Source of the DNA: an uncultured Eubacteriales bacterium
GTDB lineage: Bacteria; Bacillota; Clostridia; Christensenellales; CAG-138
Length of the DNA stretch: 64,000 nt
Direction: 5' to 3'
Assembly: GCA_900542615.1 (NCBI GenBank)
Contig: UQOG01000001.1
Coordinates: forward strand, 22,668-86,667
The position numbers and the translations under genes are program-made. Shown piece after piece: positions 33,676 through 42,273 of this stretch. The notes beneath the pieces are model-generated. The model was not told the origin of the DNA. It did no database searches and worked only from the letters and a program-made list of their open reading frames with translations. The stretch's first letter is position 1. Each line of letters starts with the position of its first letter.

Positions 33676-35229
33676 ATGTATAAATTGGGCATTGATGTGG
33701 GCGGCACCAATACGGATGCTGTTTTGATCGATGAAAATTTGCAGGTTGTGGCGTCCGTCAAGCAGCACACCACCGCAAATATCTATGACGGCATTCTCAA
33801 TGCCGTACGGGCTGTGCTGGAGCAATCCGGCGTAAAGCGCAGCGAGATCCGCCAGGCCATGCTGGGCACCACCCAGTGTACCAACGCCATCGTGGCCCGA
33901 AAGGGCCTGGCCCCCATCGGCGTTTTGCGGATCGGCGCGCCGGCGTCCCGGGGCATCCCCTTGATGGTGGATTGGGCGGAGGATCTGAAAACGATCGCGG
34001 TAAAAACCGCCATTGTGGGCGGCGGCTTCGAATACGACGGCAAGGAGATCGCTCCCTTTGACGCAGAGGCCGCGCGGGCGTTCTTTGCGGAGCTCAAGGC
34101 CAAGGCGGTAAAGTCCGTGGCCATCTCCTGCGTATTTTCCACCGTGCGCAACGACCATGAGCTGGAGGCGGCGAAGCTGTGCAGGGAAGTGATGGGGGAG
34201 GACGTGCATGTGTCCATTTCCAGCGAAATCGGCTCCATGGGCCTGATCGAGCGGGAAAACGCCACCATCCTGAACGCGGCGCTGTATCAGGTGGCGGAAT
34301 CCTTTACCGAAGGCTTTGCCCAGTCCCTGGCGGACGAGGGGGTGACCAACGCCCAAGTGTATCTCTCCCAGAACGACGGCACCCTGATGACCATGGACTA
34401 TGCCCGCCGCTACCCCATTTTGACCATTGCCTGCGGCCCCACCAATTCCATTCGGGGCGCCTGCTACCTGAGCCAGCTGAAGAACGCAGTGGTTATCGAC
34501 GTGGGCGGCACCACCACGGACCTGGGCGTGATCCAGAACGGCTTCCCCAGGGAATCCGGCGTTGCGGTCACCATCGGCGGCGTGCGCACCAATTTCCGTA
34601 TGCCGGACGTGGTATCCATCGGCCTTGGGGGCGGCTCCATCGTCCGCCAGCGGGCGGACGGCGCCGTCACCGTGGGCCCGGATTCCGTGGGCTATCAAAT
34701 CACAGAAAAAGCCCTGTGCTTCGGCGGGGACGTGTGCACCGCCACGGATATCGCCGTGCGCCTGGGTATGACGGAGCTGGGGGATAAGCGCCTGGTGGCC
34801 CATTTGGACGAGGCCTTTGCCCAGAAAGCCATGGACGCCATCCGTACCCTGTGCGAGGATTCCATCGACGCCATGAAGGTTTCCTCTGAGGATGTGGATG
34901 TGATCCTGGTGGGCGGCGGTTCCATCATCCTGCCCGGGGATCTGGCGGGGGCCAGGAGCGTGACCCAGCATGAATTCGGCGGGGTGGCCAATGCCATCGG
35001 CTCCGCCATCTCCAAGGTGAGCGGCACCTACGAGCAGCTCATCGATTACGACAAGATCCCGCGGGATCAGGCCCTGGCCCAAGCCCGCGCCGACGCCATT
35101 GAGTTGGCTGTGGCGGCAGGGGCCATTCGGGAGACGGTGGAGATCATCGACGCGGAAGACGTCCCCCTGCAATACTATCCCGGCAACACAGCCCGGGTGA
35201 AAATCAAAGCGGCGGGGGATTTAGCCTAA
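33676..35229 (+). CDS. hydantoinase/oxoprolinase (HyuA-like) family protein
   Basis: MYKLGIDVGGTNTDAVL N-terminus, second ASKHA motif VIDVGGTTTD. Confidence 0.85.
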   Translation: MYKLGIDVGGTNTDAVLIDENLQVVASVKQHTTANIYDGILNAVRAVLEQSGVKRSEIRQAMLGTTQCTNAIVARKGLAPIGVLRIGAPASRGIPLMVDWAEDLKTIAVKTAIVGGGFEYDGKEIAPFDAEAARAFFAELKAKAVKSVAISCVFSTVRNDHELEAAKLCREVMGEDVHVSISSEIGSMGLIERENATILNAALYQVAESFTEGFAQSLADEGVTNAQVYLSQNDGTLMTMDYARRYPILTIACGPTNSIRGACYLSQLKNAVVIDVGGTTTDLGVIQNGFPRESGVAVTIGGVRTNFRMPDVVSIGLGGGSIVRQRADGAVTVGPDSVGYQITEKALCFGGDVCTATDIAVRLGMTELGDKRLVAHLDEAFAQKAMDAIRTLCEDSIDAMKVSSEDVDVILVGGGSIILPGDLAGARSVTQHEFGGVANAIGSAISKVSGTYEQLIDYDKIPRDQALAQARADAIELAVAAGAIRETVEIIDAEDVPLQYYPGNTARVKIKAAGDLA

Positions 35230-35259
35230 CGATAAACCGGGACGGCGTTTTCCTATGGC

Positions 35260-35327
35260 GCCGCCCGAAATAGAGGCGGCTTTTTGCGGGAACCGGCATA
35301 GCGCAGGCTATGCCGGTTCTTTGTTGT
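35260..35327 (+). terminator. tandem terminators
   Basis: gccgcc..ggcggc + ttttt (35260-35285), then perfect 13-bp stem gaaccggcatagc-gcag-gctatgccggttc + tttgttgtt (35290-35327). Confidence 0.8.
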
Positions 35328-35672
35328 TGGCCGAGATGAAGGGGGCGGGTCAAATTGAAAAGCGAAAACAGCTAAGTCTCCGCCCCCGCCAAAGGCGCCG
35401 GCCTCCGGCCGCTGGGCCTCGCCCCTGGCTGCGCCGATGAATACAAGTTACGGCGTTCCAGCGCGAGGGATCAAATTTTAGCAGGACGTTAAAATTTTTC
35501 TCTATAAGCAGAACGAATAACGGTATTTTCTACAATTCCTGTAACCTTCTTCCCCCTGGAATCGTCTATATAGTAAAAGCCGGCATCCAGGATGCCCGGA
35601 TCCAGGCCGGCGCGACCGGCGAAGGCGCGATCTGGGGGTTGGCCCATACCAGGGCGCAAAGGAGGTGCAAAC

Positions 35673-36320
35673 ATGAAACACAACGGATCCCTGCTCCTGC
35701 TGTTGGGGGCGTTGGCGGCGGCGGGCCTGCTGCTATGCCGCCCTTCCCCCAGCCAGGACGCCATAACCATTTCCCCTTCCGTATCCCTGCCGACGGGGGA
35801 TGCGGAGCTGTCCGCCCTGGAGGATATGGTACAGGCCCAGATGCTCCTGTCCCAGCAGTCCGGGCTACAGGAGCCTTACAGCGGCTACTATAAGACCTAT
35901 GTGGACTATTTCGGCGGCACAGCCTTTGTGGACAGCAAGCTCACCGTCTATGTGACGGATACCAGCCCGGCGGCGGTCCAGGAGTTGGCCCAGGAGCCAA
36001 AGGTGGTGATTGAAAAGGTGGACTATTCCCTCAACCAGCTCAACCAGCTGGCCCTGCAAATCGTGGAACTGGGGGACGCGGGGAAGATCAACGGCTATGG
36101 GGGCCCGCCGGCGGTGCTGCCCCGGCACAACCGGGTGGATCTGACCATCTGGACGGATCGGGACCAGGCGCAGGGAGGCCTGTCCCCATCGGCGCTGTTG
36201 GAGGCACTGGGGGTTTCCAGCGCCATGCTCAACATCGTTGAGGTGGCGGATTATCCCCAGGACGCCACCGGAGCGTATATCCTACCCCATCCCGGCGTCC
36301 CGCCTAAGACCGGCGGCTAA
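35673..36320 (+). CDS. secreted/lipoprotein paralogue A; ends directly after a PPKTGG motif
   Basis: ATG 35673 behind ggaggt; signal peptide with LLLC lipobox. The C-terminal 166 aa are identical to paralogue B apart from one synonymous nt difference (500-bp repeat); stop codon immediately follows PPKTGG. Confidence 0.75.
   Translation: MKHNGSLLLLLGALAAAGLLLCRPSPSQDAITISPSVSLPTGDAELSALEDMVQAQMLLSQQSGLQEPYSGYYKTYVDYFGGTAFVDSKLTVYVTDTSPAAVQELAQEPKVVIEKVDYSLNQLNQLALQIVELGDAGKINGYGGPPAVLPRHNRVDLTIWTDRDQAQGGLSPSALLEALGVSSAMLNIVEVADYPQDATGAYILPHPGVPPKTGG
35817..36316 (+). repeat. 500-bp direct repeat, copy 1
   Basis: Aligned by eye with 36770-37269 at a constant offset of 953 nt; only one mismatch noticed (36284 a vs 37237 g). 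Confidence 0.9.
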
Positions 36321-36457
36321 GGCTACCCTTCCGTATTTGCGCGGGCCACCGGCGCGGCAAATTTCCTCGATGTATCTGCGAACCGATTTCCAACCAAGTA
36401 TTTATCAGGCTGTCCGGCTGTCGCTGCGGCCGAAAGCAAAAAGGAGGTATGCATACT

Positions 36458-37354
36458 ATGAAGCGAAAACGATTTATAAGTATCCTGTTCGCACTGTGCT
36501 TTTTTATCGTAGCGGTTCCTGCCTATGCGGCAAAAATTCGTTATTCTGACCTGAATGAATACCGGCATATCATACAAAACGAGGTGCTAACGAGCTATGA
36601 AGGCCGCGTTTTCTATGCGGTGGATGTGGATGCGCAAGCCGTTCGCATATATGTTGAAGCCCAAGACAGGGATGCCGTTACCAATGCGCTGAAACGATAC
36701 GGCATCCATATGGACATGGTTATCATAGAAGAGCAGGCAAAGGGGCGCTCTTCCATCAGCCTGGGGGAGCTGGAGGATATGGTACAGGCCCAGATGCTCC
36801 TGTCCCAGCAGTCCGGGCTACAGGAGCCTTACAGCGGCTACTATAAGACCTATGTGGACTATTTCGGCGGCACAGCCTTTGTGGACAGCAAGCTCACCGT
36901 CTATGTGACGGATACCAGCCCGGCGGCGGTCCAGGAGTTGGCCCAGGAGCCAAAGGTGGTGATTGAAAAGGTGGACTATTCCCTCAACCAGCTCAACCAG
37001 CTGGCCCTGCAAATCGTGGAACTGGGGGACGCGGGGAAGATCAACGGCTATGGGGGCCCGCCGGCGGTGCTGCCCCGGCACAACCGGGTGGATCTGACCA
37101 TCTGGACGGATCGGGACCAGGCGCAGGGAGGCCTGTCCCCATCGGCGCTGTTGGAGGCACTGGGGGTTTCCAGCGCCATGCTCAACATCGTTGAGGTGGC
37201 GGATTATCCCCAGGACGCCACCGGAGCGTATATCCTGCCCCATCCCGGCGTCCCGCCTAAGACCGGCGGAGCGTCCAACTGGGCGGGCTTGGGCATATTG
37301 GCGGTGGCGGCCCTGTTTATGGGGCTGGGGCTGTACCGGCTGTATCGGGGTTGA
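36458..37354 (+). CDS. cell-wall-sorted surface protein paralogue B (PPKTG sorting signal)
   Basis: ATG 36458 (10 nt after aaggagg); SPase-I-type signal peptide ..VPAYA; C-terminus PPKTGG + hydrophobic helix + RLYRG = sortase tripartite signal. Confidence 0.78.
   Translation: MKRKRFISILFALCFFIVAVPAYAAKIRYSDLNEYRHIIQNEVLTSYEGRVFYAVDVDAQAVRIYVEAQDRDAVTNALKRYGIHMDMVIIEEQAKGRSSISLGELEDMVQAQMLLSQQSGLQEPYSGYYKTYVDYFGGTAFVDSKLTVYVTDTSPAAVQELAQEPKVVIEKVDYSLNQLNQLALQIVELGDAGKINGYGGPPAVLPRHNRVDLTIWTDRDQAQGGLSPSALLEALGVSSAMLNIVEVADYPQDATGAYILPHPGVPPKTGGASNWAGLGILAVAALFMGLGLYRLYRG
36770..37269 (+). repeat. 500-bp direct repeat, copy 2
   Basis: See copy 1. Confidence 0.9.
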
Positions 37355-37672
37355 AGGGGTGGGCGCCCCTCTGAAAGCGCCGGCTTTGCGGTTGAAGCAG
37401 CTTATCACAGGACGGAAATCCCCGGTTACATTCATATATTATTTACACTTTCAACGGTAAAAACTGTGTATACTTGAATTATATAGAAGAACCTCCCCGA
37501 TCTGGGACCGGTAAAAGGGCGGCGGAGGAAGGGCTCATGCTTTCGTTTAGGAAAAGATCGCGGACTTGCATCCCGGTTTGGATGCTGTGCGCTGGCTTTT
37601 GGAAACGTACATGAGAAACGCCCTTTGTTCCTGCCCATTCGCTATTCGTGCATGGAGAGGAGTGAAACGACC

Positions 37673-38611
37673 ATGATCAAGAAAAACCTGTCGCTCGTAT
37701 TCGCGTTGCTGCTCGTCCTAACTGTGCTGCCCGGCCATGCGCTGGCGGAAACCCGGTTCCAAACGTATCAGGAAGCGGTGCTGCAAGAGACCAACGCCTA
37801 CCATGCGGGGAATAAGCTCACCCTGGACCCCTGGCTGTGCGCCTTGGCGGGCGTGCTGGCGGTGGAGCATGGCGGGGAAGGCAGCGTGGGGGCTTACCGC
37901 CCCAATGGGGAAAAATGGGCTACGATTTTCCAGGAATACGGCTATCAGGCGGCGCCGGCTTCCTCGGGCTGCAATTGGCTGCGAACCAAGGAAAAACCCA
38001 CGGCGCAGACCATTGTGGCGTATTGGATGCAGACGCCGGGCTTCCAGGAAAACGTGCGCTCCTCCATGTATACCCATACCGGGGTGTTTGTGTATCAGCC
38101 TGCCCGCTCCCGCTATTATTATGTGGTGCAGCTGTTCACCGTGCCCCAGAAGGGACAAACGGCCACGCTGCCGGAAGCGCCCTTGGCCATCGTCGCGGGG
38201 AGCGGGGTCAATATTCGCTCCGGGCCGGGAACGGGCTATCGCCGCCTGGGGAAATTATCCCGGGGCCAGCTCCTCGCCTTACAGGAGATCCAGGGGGATT
38301 GGGCGGCCTTTACCCTGGAGGACGGCCAAAAGGCCTATGCTCATATGGACTATCTGGCCCTGGCGACGGAGCCGGTGGAAACCACTTTGGATGTTCCCTC
38401 CACGGATCCAGGGTCCATGGGCGAGGCCCAGGCCACCGGCCGGGTAAACGTCCGCTCCGGGCCGGGCATGTCCTATGAAACGCTGGGCCAGCTCAAGCGG
38501 GGCCAACGGGTGGCGGTCTGGGATATCCAGGGGAAATGGGCGCAGATCACCTGGACCGGCAGCCAACGCGGCTACGTATATCTGGATTACCTGCGGTTTG
38601 CAGGCCGCTAA
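37673..38611 (+). CDS. secreted CAP (SCP/PR-1-like) domain protein with two SH3b domains
   Basis: ATG 37673 after ggagaggag; signal peptide ..GHALA; CAP-like N-terminal domain; two repeats of the VN(I/V)RSGPG..Y..LG.L.RGQ SH3_3 pattern. Confidence 0.72.
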   Translation: MIKKNLSLVFALLLVLTVLPGHALAETRFQTYQEAVLQETNAYHAGNKLTLDPWLCALAGVLAVEHGGEGSVGAYRPNGEKWATIFQEYGYQAAPASSGCNWLRTKEKPTAQTIVAYWMQTPGFQENVRSSMYTHTGVFVYQPARSRYYYVVQLFTVPQKGQTATLPEAPLAIVAGSGVNIRSGPGTGYRRLGKLSRGQLLALQEIQGDWAAFTLEDGQKAYAHMDYLALATEPVETTLDVPSTDPGSMGEAQATGRVNVRSGPGMSYETLGQLKRGQRVAVWDIQGKWAQITWTGSQRGYVYLDYLRFAGR

Positions 38612-38886
38612 CGCCACGCCGGACGCGCAAACCGCGTCCGGCGCTCTGCTATCACAAAAGCCATTCTTTGGGCAGGGCCAGGTGAAAAGGAGACGGCGGG
38701 GAAGCCCCTTTTTTTCAAGCATTATTTTCATCTTTAACGGAAGAAATTGTGTATATATAAATTGCGTGGAGGCCCTTCAGGCCGGAATGGCGGCGGGGCC
38801 ATGGCAGAGCCGAGGAAGGCCCTGCGAGAATGCTGGCCATAGGGCAGGGGGCTGCGGCCTCCAAACGGGGGAGGGGAGGACGGATC

Positions 38887-40020
38887 TTGAAAAGGCGTAT
38901 TCTAATCGTTTCGATCCTTGGGGGTATTGCGGTGCTTGCCCTTGCCGGCCTGTTCGGCGCGGGGCGGATGAAGGAAACACGCCGGGGCGCGTCGGAAGCG
39001 GAAGCGGCGACCGTCGGCCCGGGCACGGCCTATGCGGATTGCGCCAACGCGGCCATGGTAATCGTGCCGGAGGGCGCGCTGGACGCCGCAAAGGCATACG
39101 CCAGGCGATGGGTGGACGATGGGAAGCTCCTGTATATCCAGGATGCCGCCTGGAGCAAGGAAGCCCTTGGGGAAGCCCTTTCCATTCCCCTTGCCCAAAG
39201 CTCCGTCTACAGCCCTATGCCCCATATCGCAACCGCCATATTTCAGGCCGGAGGCCGCTATGTGTTCAGCTACATCTATGTGCAGGCGGGCCCGGCTGTG
39301 GCGGGCAATTCGGACAGCGCGCCCTTCGCGGCGACGCCGGAGCAAATCGAAGCGCTACAGGCGCTGGTTCCCCTGGAGGAGGGGTTGGAAAGCGCCCGCA
39401 CCCTCTGGACGGAGGCAAGCCTGGCCCCGTCCCTGCTTGACGGGGCGGAGGGGCGGCCCGCCCAGGCCGATGCGCTCTATGCGGACCTTGTAAAAATGTA
39501 TGACCCGGTGGGCGTTCATCTTGGGGACGGCCTCGCCTTGCAATATGTATATGAACGGGGCCAAGGGCTCGTAAACGGCCGGCAGATGGAGCTGTTTGAC
39601 GTGGTTACCCGCTTCAAGGTCCTCCCGAGGCCCGGCAATGCCCTGCAGACCTATCAGGGCAGGCTGCGTTGCGATCTGGCGGGCCAGCAGCTGCTGGATT
39701 TCGCCATCCTGCCGCCAGACGCCGGGGAAGGGGCCGTCCTTCAGCTGGGCGGCGGCAAGCTGCCCGGCGGCGCCTGGTGGAACTATACCCCCGACGGCCA
39801 GGCCGTGACCACAAACGGCGCGCCCAGCTGGGGCTATGTGGATTATTGCGCCAGCCCCCGGGCGCTGCGGCACGGCGACGCCTGGGAGCTACAGCCCGGC
39901 ATCCGCGTGGCAGCCGGCGAGGCCGGGCAACGGGGCGCGTTTTCCAGGCTGACCATCCCCGCGCTGGGGATCTTCGGACAGGGTGGCGCCTATACCCTGG
40001 AAGTGGGCGGATGGTTTTAA
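38887..40020 (+). CDS. membrane-anchored hypothetical protein
   Basis: TTG 38887 after gggaggggagga; N-terminal TM helix (ILIVSILGGIAVLALAGLF); no family recognised. Confidence 0.55.
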   Translation: MKRRILIVSILGGIAVLALAGLFGAGRMKETRRGASEAEAATVGPGTAYADCANAAMVIVPEGALDAAKAYARRWVDDGKLLYIQDAAWSKEALGEALSIPLAQSSVYSPMPHIATAIFQAGGRYVFSYIYVQAGPAVAGNSDSAPFAATPEQIEALQALVPLEEGLESARTLWTEASLAPSLLDGAEGRPAQADALYADLVKMYDPVGVHLGDGLALQYVYERGQGLVNGRQMELFDVVTRFKVLPRPGNALQTYQGRLRCDLAGQQLLDFAILPPDAGEGAVLQLGGGKLPGGAWWNYTPDGQAVTTNGAPSWGYVDYCASPRALRHGDAWELQPGIRVAAGEAGQRGAFSRLTIPALGIFGQGGAYTLEVGGWF

Positions 40021-40109: not shown

Positions 40110-42273
40110 ATGAAACAAACCCTGGCGATGCTGGCGGCCGTCCTATGCCTTCTGAGCGCCTGCCAGCCAACCCCTGCCGCCGAGCCCGTGCCATACCAGG
40201 GCCATGACCCGGTGGACAACGCGCCTTCAGCGGCGGCATTTGAAGCAATCGATGCGCCGCCCCGGGTGGAAACCAGCTTTACAGACGAGGCCACCGGCCT
40301 TACGGTAATCTTTGACTGTGAAGTGAAGACGCCGGAAGTATCCGGCTATTCCATCCTGGCAGCAAAGGCGGCGCAGCTTTCCGCCGGGGACTTCGCCGCC
40401 GCCATAGAAGCCCTGTGCCCCGGTAAACCGCTGCTGCAAGCGCCGGTGCGCACCCAGGCGGAATGGGGGGCGTACATCACCCGCTGCAAACAGAACCTGG
40501 GGGAAAGCGACCCTGCGTATATCCAATACTTGACGGAGCAAATGATGAACGCGCCGCAAACCTATGCGCCCGCGCCCTTCCATCTGGAAGATATAGGCGC
40601 CGGGGGATCCTTTGAAGCCTACTTTTCCAACGAAGAAGGCGCTTATGGCATCGTGAGCGGGGCCCTGGGGGGCAGCTGGTTCTACTATTCCCGGGATCAG
40701 GAAGCGGGCTGTATCGGCGAGGACGATCTGGAGCCCGGTCTGGACGACGCCATGCTGGCGGATTACCAGGGGGAATTCTCCCTCTCCGCCCAGGCGGCGC
40801 TGCCCTATGCCCGGGCGGCCCTTGCGGCCCTGGGGCAGGCGGACGCAGAGCAGGCCTATGTGGGCAAAATGTGCGCCTACGCCTATGGCGGGCTATACGC
40901 AAAGGGCTGGAAATTCGTATTCACCCACGGGGCCAATGGCCTGCCCAGCCCCTATGCTGCGGAAACGGTCACCTTCGGCGGCGACGGGCTTCCCCTGCCG
41001 ACCCTGTGCTCTCCCTGGGGGACTGGAGCTGATATCCATCTTTGTGGATGACCAGGGGGTGCTGATGATTAACGCCGTCAATATGATAGACCCCGGGGAA
41101 ACGATCGTAGAGAATGTGGCGCTATTGCCGTTTTCGCAGCGCTTTTGCTCGGCACTTATAGGTATTATTTCCAAACGAAGAAAGGTGGATTAGCCGTGAG
41201 AATCGAAGAAAGCAGAAATAAATTAAAATCCAATATAATGATGTTTGTTGTAGCCTTTTTCGTTGCATTGGCTCTATATTGTACGCCGCGAATGCTTATA
41301 GAATTTTACTGGAATGGTGCGTTTGTTCCTTTTATACGAATAATGAAAACTGCAGTTTTCGTTTTTGCACCGTTATTTTTGGCCGCATACATACTTTATA
41401 TATCCGATATTAAGAAGCACATCAAATGGACATCGCTAAATGTAGTATGGTATTTCAGCTTCGCATTGTATATTACAATTTTGATTTTTGTTTTATTCGG
41501 TGGAGGGAGGCGAGATTATGACTATTCCGCTATTCATCCTAATTTTACCCCATTGGTATCAACTATCAAAGCAATAGAGATTAGTATCGCAACGCATGAC
41601 TTGTATTTTTTTAGGAGTATGATTTTTAATGTTTTGCTATTCGCACCGTTTTCATTCTTTTTATCTTGGAAAATAAAAAAAAGGAGGGCTATTATCGGCA
41701 TAGCTTTTTTAGCTATATGTGCTGCCGAACTTGCGCAGCAGTTGCTTAATGTTGGAGTTTTCGATATTGATGATATTTTGTTGAATCTTGTTGGCGTAGT
41801 TTTAGGCTTTGTTTCGTATATGTGTATTTCCAAGTTAATCAAAGTGAGCTCTGGATAACTGTGAATTTTACGAAGAAGATCTAGCTGAACGAATAATATA
41901 TCATTGGCAGTATTATTAGTAAAAAAGTGGTAAAATGTTTTGGAAATCATAGTGGTAAATAAGGTGCTTCGTGTAGGCATAGTGAGATGATTTACAACTA
42001 ACAGACGGCATCCGGCAGCATCTTGTGCGGACGTTCTTCTATTTGCCGGAGCGGGTGGAGCGGGCCGCGATCAAGGTGACCGGCATGGAGCTATGCGCCG
42101 CCACGGTCACCGCAAAGAACGACCCGGAAGCGGGCCGGATGATCCCTGCCTGGAAGGTGTCCTTCCAAACCATGGGGGACGCGCAGGATGGGATCGAGGC
42201 TTACAGCCGGTATTTCAGCGCCATCGACGGCAGCTATATCGAGCCGCGGATCACGTCGGCATATTTGGGGTGA
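40110..42273 (+). pseudogene. lipoprotein of the local paralogue family, disrupted by a poly-G frameshift and a ~0.86-kb low-GC insertion
   Basis: ATG 40110 after ggaggtgga; lipobox LLSAC. The frame breaks at the G5 run 41017-41021; removing one G restores ..SPWGLELISIFVDDQGVL.., collinear with 43457-44848. Homology stops about 41140 and resumes about 42005 (..IRQHLVRTFFYLPERVE..SYIEPRITSAYLG), matching the C-terminus of the intact paralogue. Confidence 0.7.
41196..41858 (+). CDS. VanZ-like family membrane protein (inside the insertion)
   Basis: GTG 41196 after gaaaggtgga; 5-6 TM helices; C-terminal DIDDILLNLVGVVLGF motif typical of VanZ-like proteins; strongly AT-rich versus flanks. Confidence 0.7.
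   Translation: MRIEESRNKLKSNIMMFVVAFFVALALYCTPRMLIEFYWNGAFVPFIRIMKTAVFVFAPLFLAAYILYISDIKKHIKWTSLNVVWYFSFALYITILIFVLFGGGRRDYDYSAIHPNFTPLVSTIKAIEISIATHDLYFFRSMIFNVLLFAPFSFFLSWKIKKRRAIIGIAFLAICAAELAQQLLNVGVFDIDDILLNLVGVVLGFVSYMCISKLIKVSSG

Follow-up and report, generated by a model that had tools for sequence, protein, structure and literature searches.

A shared 500-bp core in adjacent exported-protein genes of an uncultured gut Clostridia-type bacterium and its likely exchange by homologous recombination

Introduction

Two adjacent genes of an uncultured Eubacteriales bacterium from the human gut start with unrelated sequence and carry the same 500 bp of coding sequence almost to the letter, which raises the question of how this block came to be shared and what keeps its two copies alike. 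The genes, here called A and B, lie in a stretch of 64,000 nucleotides (the window) of contig UQOG01000001.1 from assembly GCA_900542615.1. An earlier note, made from the letters alone, had described the block as a near-perfect direct repeat in two surface-protein genes and had attributed it to a very recent duplication or to ongoing gene conversion. On the evidence presented here we consider it likely that the repeat is the core shared by two adjacent paralogues encoding exported proteins, of which B is chimeric and sortase-anchored and A is truncated, and that the two cores exchange sequence by homologous recombination.

Anatomy of the repeat and of the two genes

A position-by-position comparison at an offset of 953 bp and a repeat search bore out the repeat as the note had described it: 35817-36316 matches 36770-37269 over exactly 500 bp with a single differing site, 32 nt short of the right-hand end, and no further mismatch within the 500 bp. 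Identity begins and ends abruptly, with C at 35816 facing G at 36769 on the left and unrelated sequence from 36317 and 37270 onwards on the right. Of the 953-bp period, 500 bp (about 167 codons) are repeated; the remaining 453 bp, between the two cores (36317-36769), bear no relation to 37270-37722. When the whole 2.14-Mb metagenome-assembled genome (MAG; 182 contigs) was searched, these were the only two copies; a repeat of this kind is far beyond chance. The block is C-terminal in gene A and internal in gene B, and the features of the locus are as follows.

35673-36320, + strand: gene A, 215 aa; signal peptide MKHNGSLLLLLGALAAAGLLLC.., short linker and core, ending in GVPPKTGG-stop
35817-36316, + strand: repeat copy 1, the core of gene A (offset comparison, repeat search, genome search)
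36284, + strand: the sole mismatch, A here and G at 37237 (CTA/CTG, both Leu, synonymous)
36300-36320, + strand: PPKTG motif of gene A (36300-36314), followed by Gly and TAA
36317-36457, + strand: spacer x between A and B, with about 69% nucleotide homology to the upstream region of another species' SH3-repeat protein gene
36458-37354, + strand: gene B, 298 aa; signal peptide MKRKRF..AVPAYA followed by A, domain of about 80 aa, core, PPKTGG, hydrophobic segment, YRLYRG
36458-36729, + strand: N-terminal module of B, i.e. signal peptide and domain of about 80 aa (protein and contig comparisons)
36770-37269, + strand: repeat copy 2, the core of gene B (offset comparison, repeat search, genome search)
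37253-37354, + strand: cell-wall sorting signal of B; PPKTG (37253-37267), GASN, hydrophobic WAGLGILAVAALFMGLGL, tail YRLYRG, stop

Beyond PPKTGG, gene B continues as ASNWAGLGILAVAALFMGLGLYRLYRG, and with its signal peptide, pentapeptide, hydrophobic segment and positively charged tail it has the complete layout of a sortase substrate. PPKTG is an experimentally established motif of the sortase SrtB in C. difficile (PMC4155245, PMC4591827, PMC5118464). The genome itself encodes a sortase on contig C92 (PF04203, 68.5 bits) as well as about nine other open reading frames (ORFs) that end in xP[KRSP]TG-D followed by a hydrophobic or transmembrane segment and a basic tail. Judged from these features, the sortase of this genome most likely attaches protein B to peptidoglycan. 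Two properties of the tail region speak against such anchoring: the curated LPXTG-anchor model TIGR01167 scores B at 12.5 bits (E = 0.19), below its cut-off of 15.9, and the tail contains only two arginines.

Two further observations concern sortase and its motif. A second sortase-like ORF in the same genome (C44:11992-12281) is split over two frames (PF04203, 25.8 and 24.8 bits) and is possibly a frameshifted pseudogene. In an alignment with distant family members, their sorting motif VPKTG/LPKSG falls opposite LPHPG of B, and the functional-looking PPKTG follows directly after it (window 37238-37267); this clade seems either to have duplicated the sorting motif or to have exchanged it for another.

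Gene A is preceded by a ribosome-binding site (aggagg, 7 nt upstream), and at least 17 intact variants of it, each of 215 aa, are present in other assemblies. Its homology to B stops within the last glycine codon, which reads GGC TAA in A and GGA GCG in B, so that the reading frame closes one residue past PPKTG with neither hydrophobic segment nor charged tail; no anchor-like coding sequence was found downstream of gene A in any frame. The proposal that both genes share an identical, anchored C-terminal module is not supported: they have the core and PPKTGG in common, whereas the anchored C-terminus belongs to B only. The lipobox signal peptide that had been ascribed to A is doubtful as well. 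Lipobox signal peptides end in [LVI][ASTVI][GAS]-C (PROSITE PS51257), a rule that the non-canonical GLLLC of gene A, with leucine at position -1, does not satisfy. Since gene A lacks a retention signal, its protein is probably released or only transiently held at the membrane.

Origin of the parts and extent of the core family

The note had described the extra N-terminal region of B as AT-richer, in agreement with its GC content of 49-53% against about 62%. Its provenance can be traced in the interval between the cores (36317-36769, 453 bp): nucleotides 4-413 of this interval match, at 69.5% identity, the 5' part of genes for SH3-repeat proteins in another species (L026-L041, P0043-P0048). The match takes in the signal peptide and the domain of about 80 aa and reaches 138 bp into the non-coding sequence upstream. 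At the protein level, too, the N-terminal module of B elsewhere precedes SH3_3 repeats in proteins of other species (P0043-P0048; L010 6258-7190 in G001), and a contig scan of genomes returned only one distant locus, with the N-terminal module alone. The domain of about 80 aa, which is without a Pfam family, is a mobile module of wall-associated proteins. The L010 protein, which is 310 aa long and from the same genus, has this domain at both ends around two SH3 repeats. An interpretation of the domain as an internal repeat of the core was rejected (BLASTP E = 2).

The alignment places a GGCGG microhomology exactly at the junction between core and spacer, and neither a terminator nor a promoter of its own was detected above background between A and B. 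Compared in this way, gene B appears to be a chimera of the 5' module of an SH3 gene with the mature core and anchor of its own family, and gene A appears to be an A-type gene cut at an illegitimate junction right after PPKTGG. The tandem layout may have arisen through an illegitimate insertion facilitated by homology, or through tandem duplication of a larger segment that was subsequently trimmed.

The core family itself appears to be tiny and restricted to the genus and its close relatives. No Pfam or NCBIfam family matched A, B or the 396-aa neighbour, and a profile search of the PDB with the same three proteins gave only spurious short matches to designed 'Pizza' proteins. The AlphaFold2 model of B (mean predicted local distance difference test score, pLDDT, 52.7) was too poor for a fold search. 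An exhaustive HMMER search returned only 12 relatives among 1.84 billion representative proteins, so no deeper alignment is possible. Genomes and contigs of the same genus or close relatives contain single genes of 226 aa composed of signal peptide, core and anchor (G007, L022-L025), and related genomes or contigs contain single genes of 238 aa with an A-like signal peptide, core and full anchor (P0031/L045). One sister species carries both paralogues at the same locus, 1.7 kb apart and flanking a conserved gene of 373-411 aa; over 580 bp they share only 88.6% identity. The pair of paralogues is therefore older than the species studied here. In L025 (645-1300) the sister species' A-type gene of 238 aa contains a frameshift, which may reflect a pseudogene or an assembly error.

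Exchange between the two cores across strains

Loci of other strains were retrieved by exact-protein look-ups in independent human-gut metagenome assemblies. Counting the window, eight assemblies have A and B side by side with this 500-bp block, and in all seven that were checked for extension the identity reaches 0 nt past the block edges. The A and B cores differ at 1 nt in the window, 0 nt in L011, L013 and L017, 2 nt in L042, 22 nt in L014 (a 238-kb contig), 28 nt in L012 and 30 nt in L020. In five strains the two genes are thus separated by 0-2 nt and in the other three by 22-30 nt, compared to up to 33 nt for the same gene between strains. The tandem layout is old and species-wide.

The direction of exchange can be followed through a diagnostic patch. 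In unconverted pairs the A-type core carries a derived patch at nt 160-210 encoding AQEPKVVIEK, while the B-type core encodes AKYPGVNIKK at the patch, as in sister species. Both genes have the A patch in the window and L013 and the B patch in L011, L017 and L042, and the B patch is also present in the A genes of L018 and L019. In a maximum-likelihood tree, which groups copies by strain, the A-type clade (100/100) also takes in the B copies of the window and of L013, and the A copies of L011, L017, L042, L018 and L019 fall among those of B type. The cores form mosaics in which three segments (nt 10-60, 160-252 and 338-468), with breakpoints between them, assort independently, and the mismatch at 36284 is a standing allele of the A copy, found in four assemblies (the window, L020, L018 and L042).

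Assemblers of the metaSPAdes type aggressively collapse bulges of equal coverage. For a haplotype test we therefore restricted the comparison to sites within 51 nt of the unique flanks, where bulges cannot form. A haplotype of five single-nucleotide polymorphisms (SNPs) at core nt 41-51, ATGCA or GCCTG, which is linked to unique flank over no more than 55 nt, occurs in all four A/B combinations: ATGCA/ATGCA in seven assemblies, GCCTG/ATGCA in two, ATGCA/GCCTG in one and GCCTG/GCCTG in two. This flank-linked evidence for exchange rests on L015, L042, L012 and L020, and B proteins with either version are present in the catalogue (P0062 and P0001). As all four flank-linked combinations are found at bulge-free sites, the paralogues do exchange sequence, irrespective of any effect of the assembler. 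Gene conversion between A and B is accordingly well supported, and complete homogenisation in the window strain is probable. The suggestion of ongoing conversion is borne out by the spread of differences between strains, by the occurrence of either patch in homogenised pairs and by the four haplotype combinations, while that of a very recent duplication is contradicted by block edges that are identical throughout the species, by copies that have diverged by 4-6% in some strains and by the paralogues of the sister species.

Structural alleles of the locus

The locus also varies in structure. Alleles were sought in the 90%-identity cluster of protein B, whose 49 members include P0001, 98% identical to the gene B protein, as well as ORFs of 242, 240 and 274 aa. 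The 242-aa form joins the N-terminus of A to core and anchor and corresponds to the window minus exactly 953 bp. In L049 and L050 (MEGAHIT contigs of 52 and 64 kb) it has a pure A-type core, and its anchor is distinguished by a 10-nt patch in which GRPGW replaces GASNW; this allele is best read as ancestral, pre-dating the insertion. The 242-aa form of P0067, by comparison, combines the A patch with the anchor of B, and those of P0061, P0066, P0070 and L021 combine the B patch with the anchor of B. These five look like products of repeat-by-repeat pop-out, although short SPAdes contigs among them may be skipped loops. The 240- and 274-aa ORFs define a third haplotype, with the following deletion.

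35373-36649, no strand: segment deleted in the third haplotype; ORFs read ..KLKSENS joined to YVEAQDRD.., with aacagc joined to tatgttgaag at the junction

This deletion takes out gene A together with the signal peptide of B. It had been predicted that recombination between the repeats would delete or amplify a 953-bp unit; alleles that lack this unit exist, whereas no three-copy form was seen. The accompanying prediction of an N-terminal swap agrees with the 242-aa single genes, which put the N-terminus of A on the anchored C-terminus, with the proviso that one or more classes of them seem to be ancestral and not derived.

The left end of the deletion attracts a few observations of its own. 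Position 35372-35373 (2208/2209 in L021) is a breakpoint common to two unrelated rearrangements. L021 loses synteny with the window at 35373, to the left of which it has 2.2 kb of foreign sequence encoding a 652-aa protein with an HExxH motif that is absent from the genome of the window. A loosely similar 10-11-mer, CTAAG(T/G)CT(C/A)C, is found at 35372 and at the junction between core and spacer at 36317.

Alternative explanations

The alternative that deserves most attention is an artefact of assembly. According to it, the core interiors of the window strain truly differ by about 4-5% as in L014, and their bulges were collapsed to one consensus that was used twice; even so, partial conversion of the left end would have taken place. 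The genome is apparently a short-read MAG (182 contigs, N50 15 kb). It runs through exact dispersed repeats of 200 bp and through the 500-bp repeat, which points to paired-end repeat resolution of the SPAdes type, and the one retained mismatch lies 32 nt from unique flank, where bulges cannot form. In L018 the core of B is interrupted by a 100-N scaffold gap, and a number of contigs end 55 nt inside the second copy. Several features of the strain comparison likewise weigh against complete conversion in the window strain and in others like it. B copies with the A-specific patch occur in the window and L013 only. Every assembly with 0-2 differences consists of SPAdes-like scaffolds or contigs (they carry '-scaffold_' names), in which interior differences between stretches of at least k shared bases would collapse, and L014, the only long-read-like contig, retains its 22 differences. 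In the nearly homogenised assemblies with differences left, i.e. the window and L042, these lie within about 32 nt of the block edge, a position expected from true conversion and from bulge collapse alike. What speaks for conversion is that the A patch of the window core is linked to 'AA' alleles at 251-252, 41 nt away, so that a recombinant haplotype must exist in the reads; that apparently the same pipeline, to judge by contig naming, retained 28-30 differences in L012 and L020; and that single-gene alleles with a B-type core on the N-terminus of A, if real, need exchange of the whole core. Taking both sides together, we regard collapse of the interiors as unlikely, though still to be reckoned with, and retain exchange by homologous recombination as the preferred explanation.

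Near-identity amid an otherwise unrelated neighbourhood could also reflect the youth of a tandem duplication in this strain, without any conversion. Yet only 500 bp of the 953-bp period are repeated, contrary to what a head-to-tail duplication would give, the interval between the cores is of separate origin, the same block edges recur in eight assemblies with up to 30 differences, and both paralogue types already exist in the sister species; the population data refute this explanation, which we take to be almost certainly wrong. Very improbable, too, is a programmed system, either the template and variable repeats of a diversity-generating retroelement (DGR) or a site-specific cassette switch, in spite of an A in copy 1 and a G in copy 2 at the sole mismatch, of the breakpoint at 35372/35373 that two different rearrangements have in common and of the loosely similar 10-11-mers there and at 36317. 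The mismatch is a standing synonymous polymorphism, unconverted copies differ at all bases rather than specifically at adenines, and the genome contains no match to the reverse transcriptase family RVT_1, which together exclude a DGR. As for a cassette switch, no inverted repeats longer than 29 nt or with more than 77% complementarity were found in 34000-39500, the similarity of the motif CTAAGKCTMCC is weak (one exact match, with a chance expectation of 0.06), and no dedicated recombinase was identified.

Two further observations concern the assemblies. An apparent 234-bp deletion in L018 turned out to be its 100-N scaffold gap. The dispersed repeat family of about 200 bp, which may be an element like a miniature inverted-repeat transposable element or a repetitive extragenic palindrome (MITE/REP-like), has many copies with 97-100% identity inside contigs of the genome (e.g. 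C4:24677-24884, C12:22869-23076, C143:2271-2473 and C119:4982-5184), which shows that exact repeats beyond the usual k-mer length are resolved by the assembler.

Proposed history and comparison with known systems

The anatomy of the locus, the pattern across the population and the coexisting alleles can be brought together in a tentative order of events. B would have formed when the promoter-proximal region, signal peptide and domain of about 80 aa of a gene for an SH3-repeat wall protein were joined to a core with complete sorting signal. A would have kept the other signal peptide of the family and the core, and would have been cut at the GGCGG microhomology after PPKTGG. The tandem cores would then recombine by a homologous, presumably RecA-dependent and non-reciprocal process in both directions, by which haplotype blocks pass from one gene to the other; in some strains, that of the window apparently among them, the whole block would have been homogenised to within a few tens of bases of the homology edges. 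The same homology would permit pop-out of the 953-bp unit, leaving a single gene with the N-terminus of A on the anchored C-terminus. Mechanistically, this is ordinary homologous recombination acting on paralogues in tandem, and nothing new.

Similar processes are known elsewhere. In Salmonella tufA/tufB and in rRNA operons, RecA-dependent conversion keeps duplicates near-identical between unrelated flanks. The non-reciprocal homologous exchange and the unrelated flanks are as in our locus, but those genes are essential housekeeping genes that are homogenised in essentially all strains, whereas here homogenisation is patchy and occurs beside deletion alleles and ancestral single-gene alleles. 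Conversion between a partial copy and an expressed surface-protein gene also underlies the pilE/pilS system of Neisseria, in which the pilS copies are silent, promoterless donors and initiation is dedicated and guanine quadruplex (G4)-dependent; in contrast, both genes studied here have a start codon, ribosome-binding site and signal peptide, exchange runs both ways, and no dedicated element was found.

A close parallel may be drawn to the adhesin paralogues babA/babB(/babC) of H. pylori, which undergo intragenomic recombination and gene conversion (PMC3444412, PMC4552749). There as here, paralogous surface-protein genes combine divergent parts with a shared block that is kept alike within one genome, and non-reciprocal exchange yields chimeras and diversity of genotypes from strain to strain. 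The bab genes, however, encode outer-membrane proteins of known function at distant loci of a Gram-negative pathogen, while the present copies lie in tandem 453 bp apart in a Gram-positive-type gut commensal and one of them is without an anchor. With C. difficile SrtB substrates such as CD2831 and CD3246 ((S/P)PXTG; PMC4155245, PMC4591827, PMC5118464), B has in common PPKTG, the hydrophobic stretch and basic residues; B, whose anchoring is a prediction, has a tail with only two arginines and a TIGR01167 score below cut-off, and outside the signal there is no sequence similarity.

Gene conversion between copies is a well-known and fairly ordinary bacterial route for reshuffling surface proteins. 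The locus offers a clean natural example of surface-protein remodelling in an uncultured human-gut Clostridia-type bacterium, combining a fusion gene, a neighbour truncated exactly after the sortase motif and sequence exchange between the copies. Tandem, single-gene and deleted alleles coexist in the population. The locus is of use to studies of microbiome population genetics at the level of strains, and it serves as a warning that short-read MAGs may over-homogenise such paralogues. As a speculation to which we give little credence, A could be a released decoy of the anchored form B, with conversion selected to keep the decoy antigenically identical, for example so as to soak up immunoglobulin A (IgA) or phage receptor-binding proteins, and with pop-out and re-acquisition of the 953-bp unit switching the N-terminal display.

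Neighbourhood of the locus

Two genes follow B in the window.

37625-38611, + strand: downstream neighbour, secreted, with a CAP-like domain and two SH3_3 repeats (domain search)
38830-40020, + strand: conserved partner gene, 373-411 aa, no known domain, accompanying core-family genes in this species and in sister species

The SH3 part of the former protein resembles the SH3 repeats of proteins that carry the N-terminal module of B. In some strains (L049, L050 and L017 7471-8729) a SpaA-type LPXTG pilin gene and a sortase gene are located downstream of the conserved partner gene. The window has a lipoprotein/VanZ cluster instead from about 40565, and it is at 40565 that synteny with L049 stops, which marks the whole neighbourhood as a strain-variable island of surface-protein genes.

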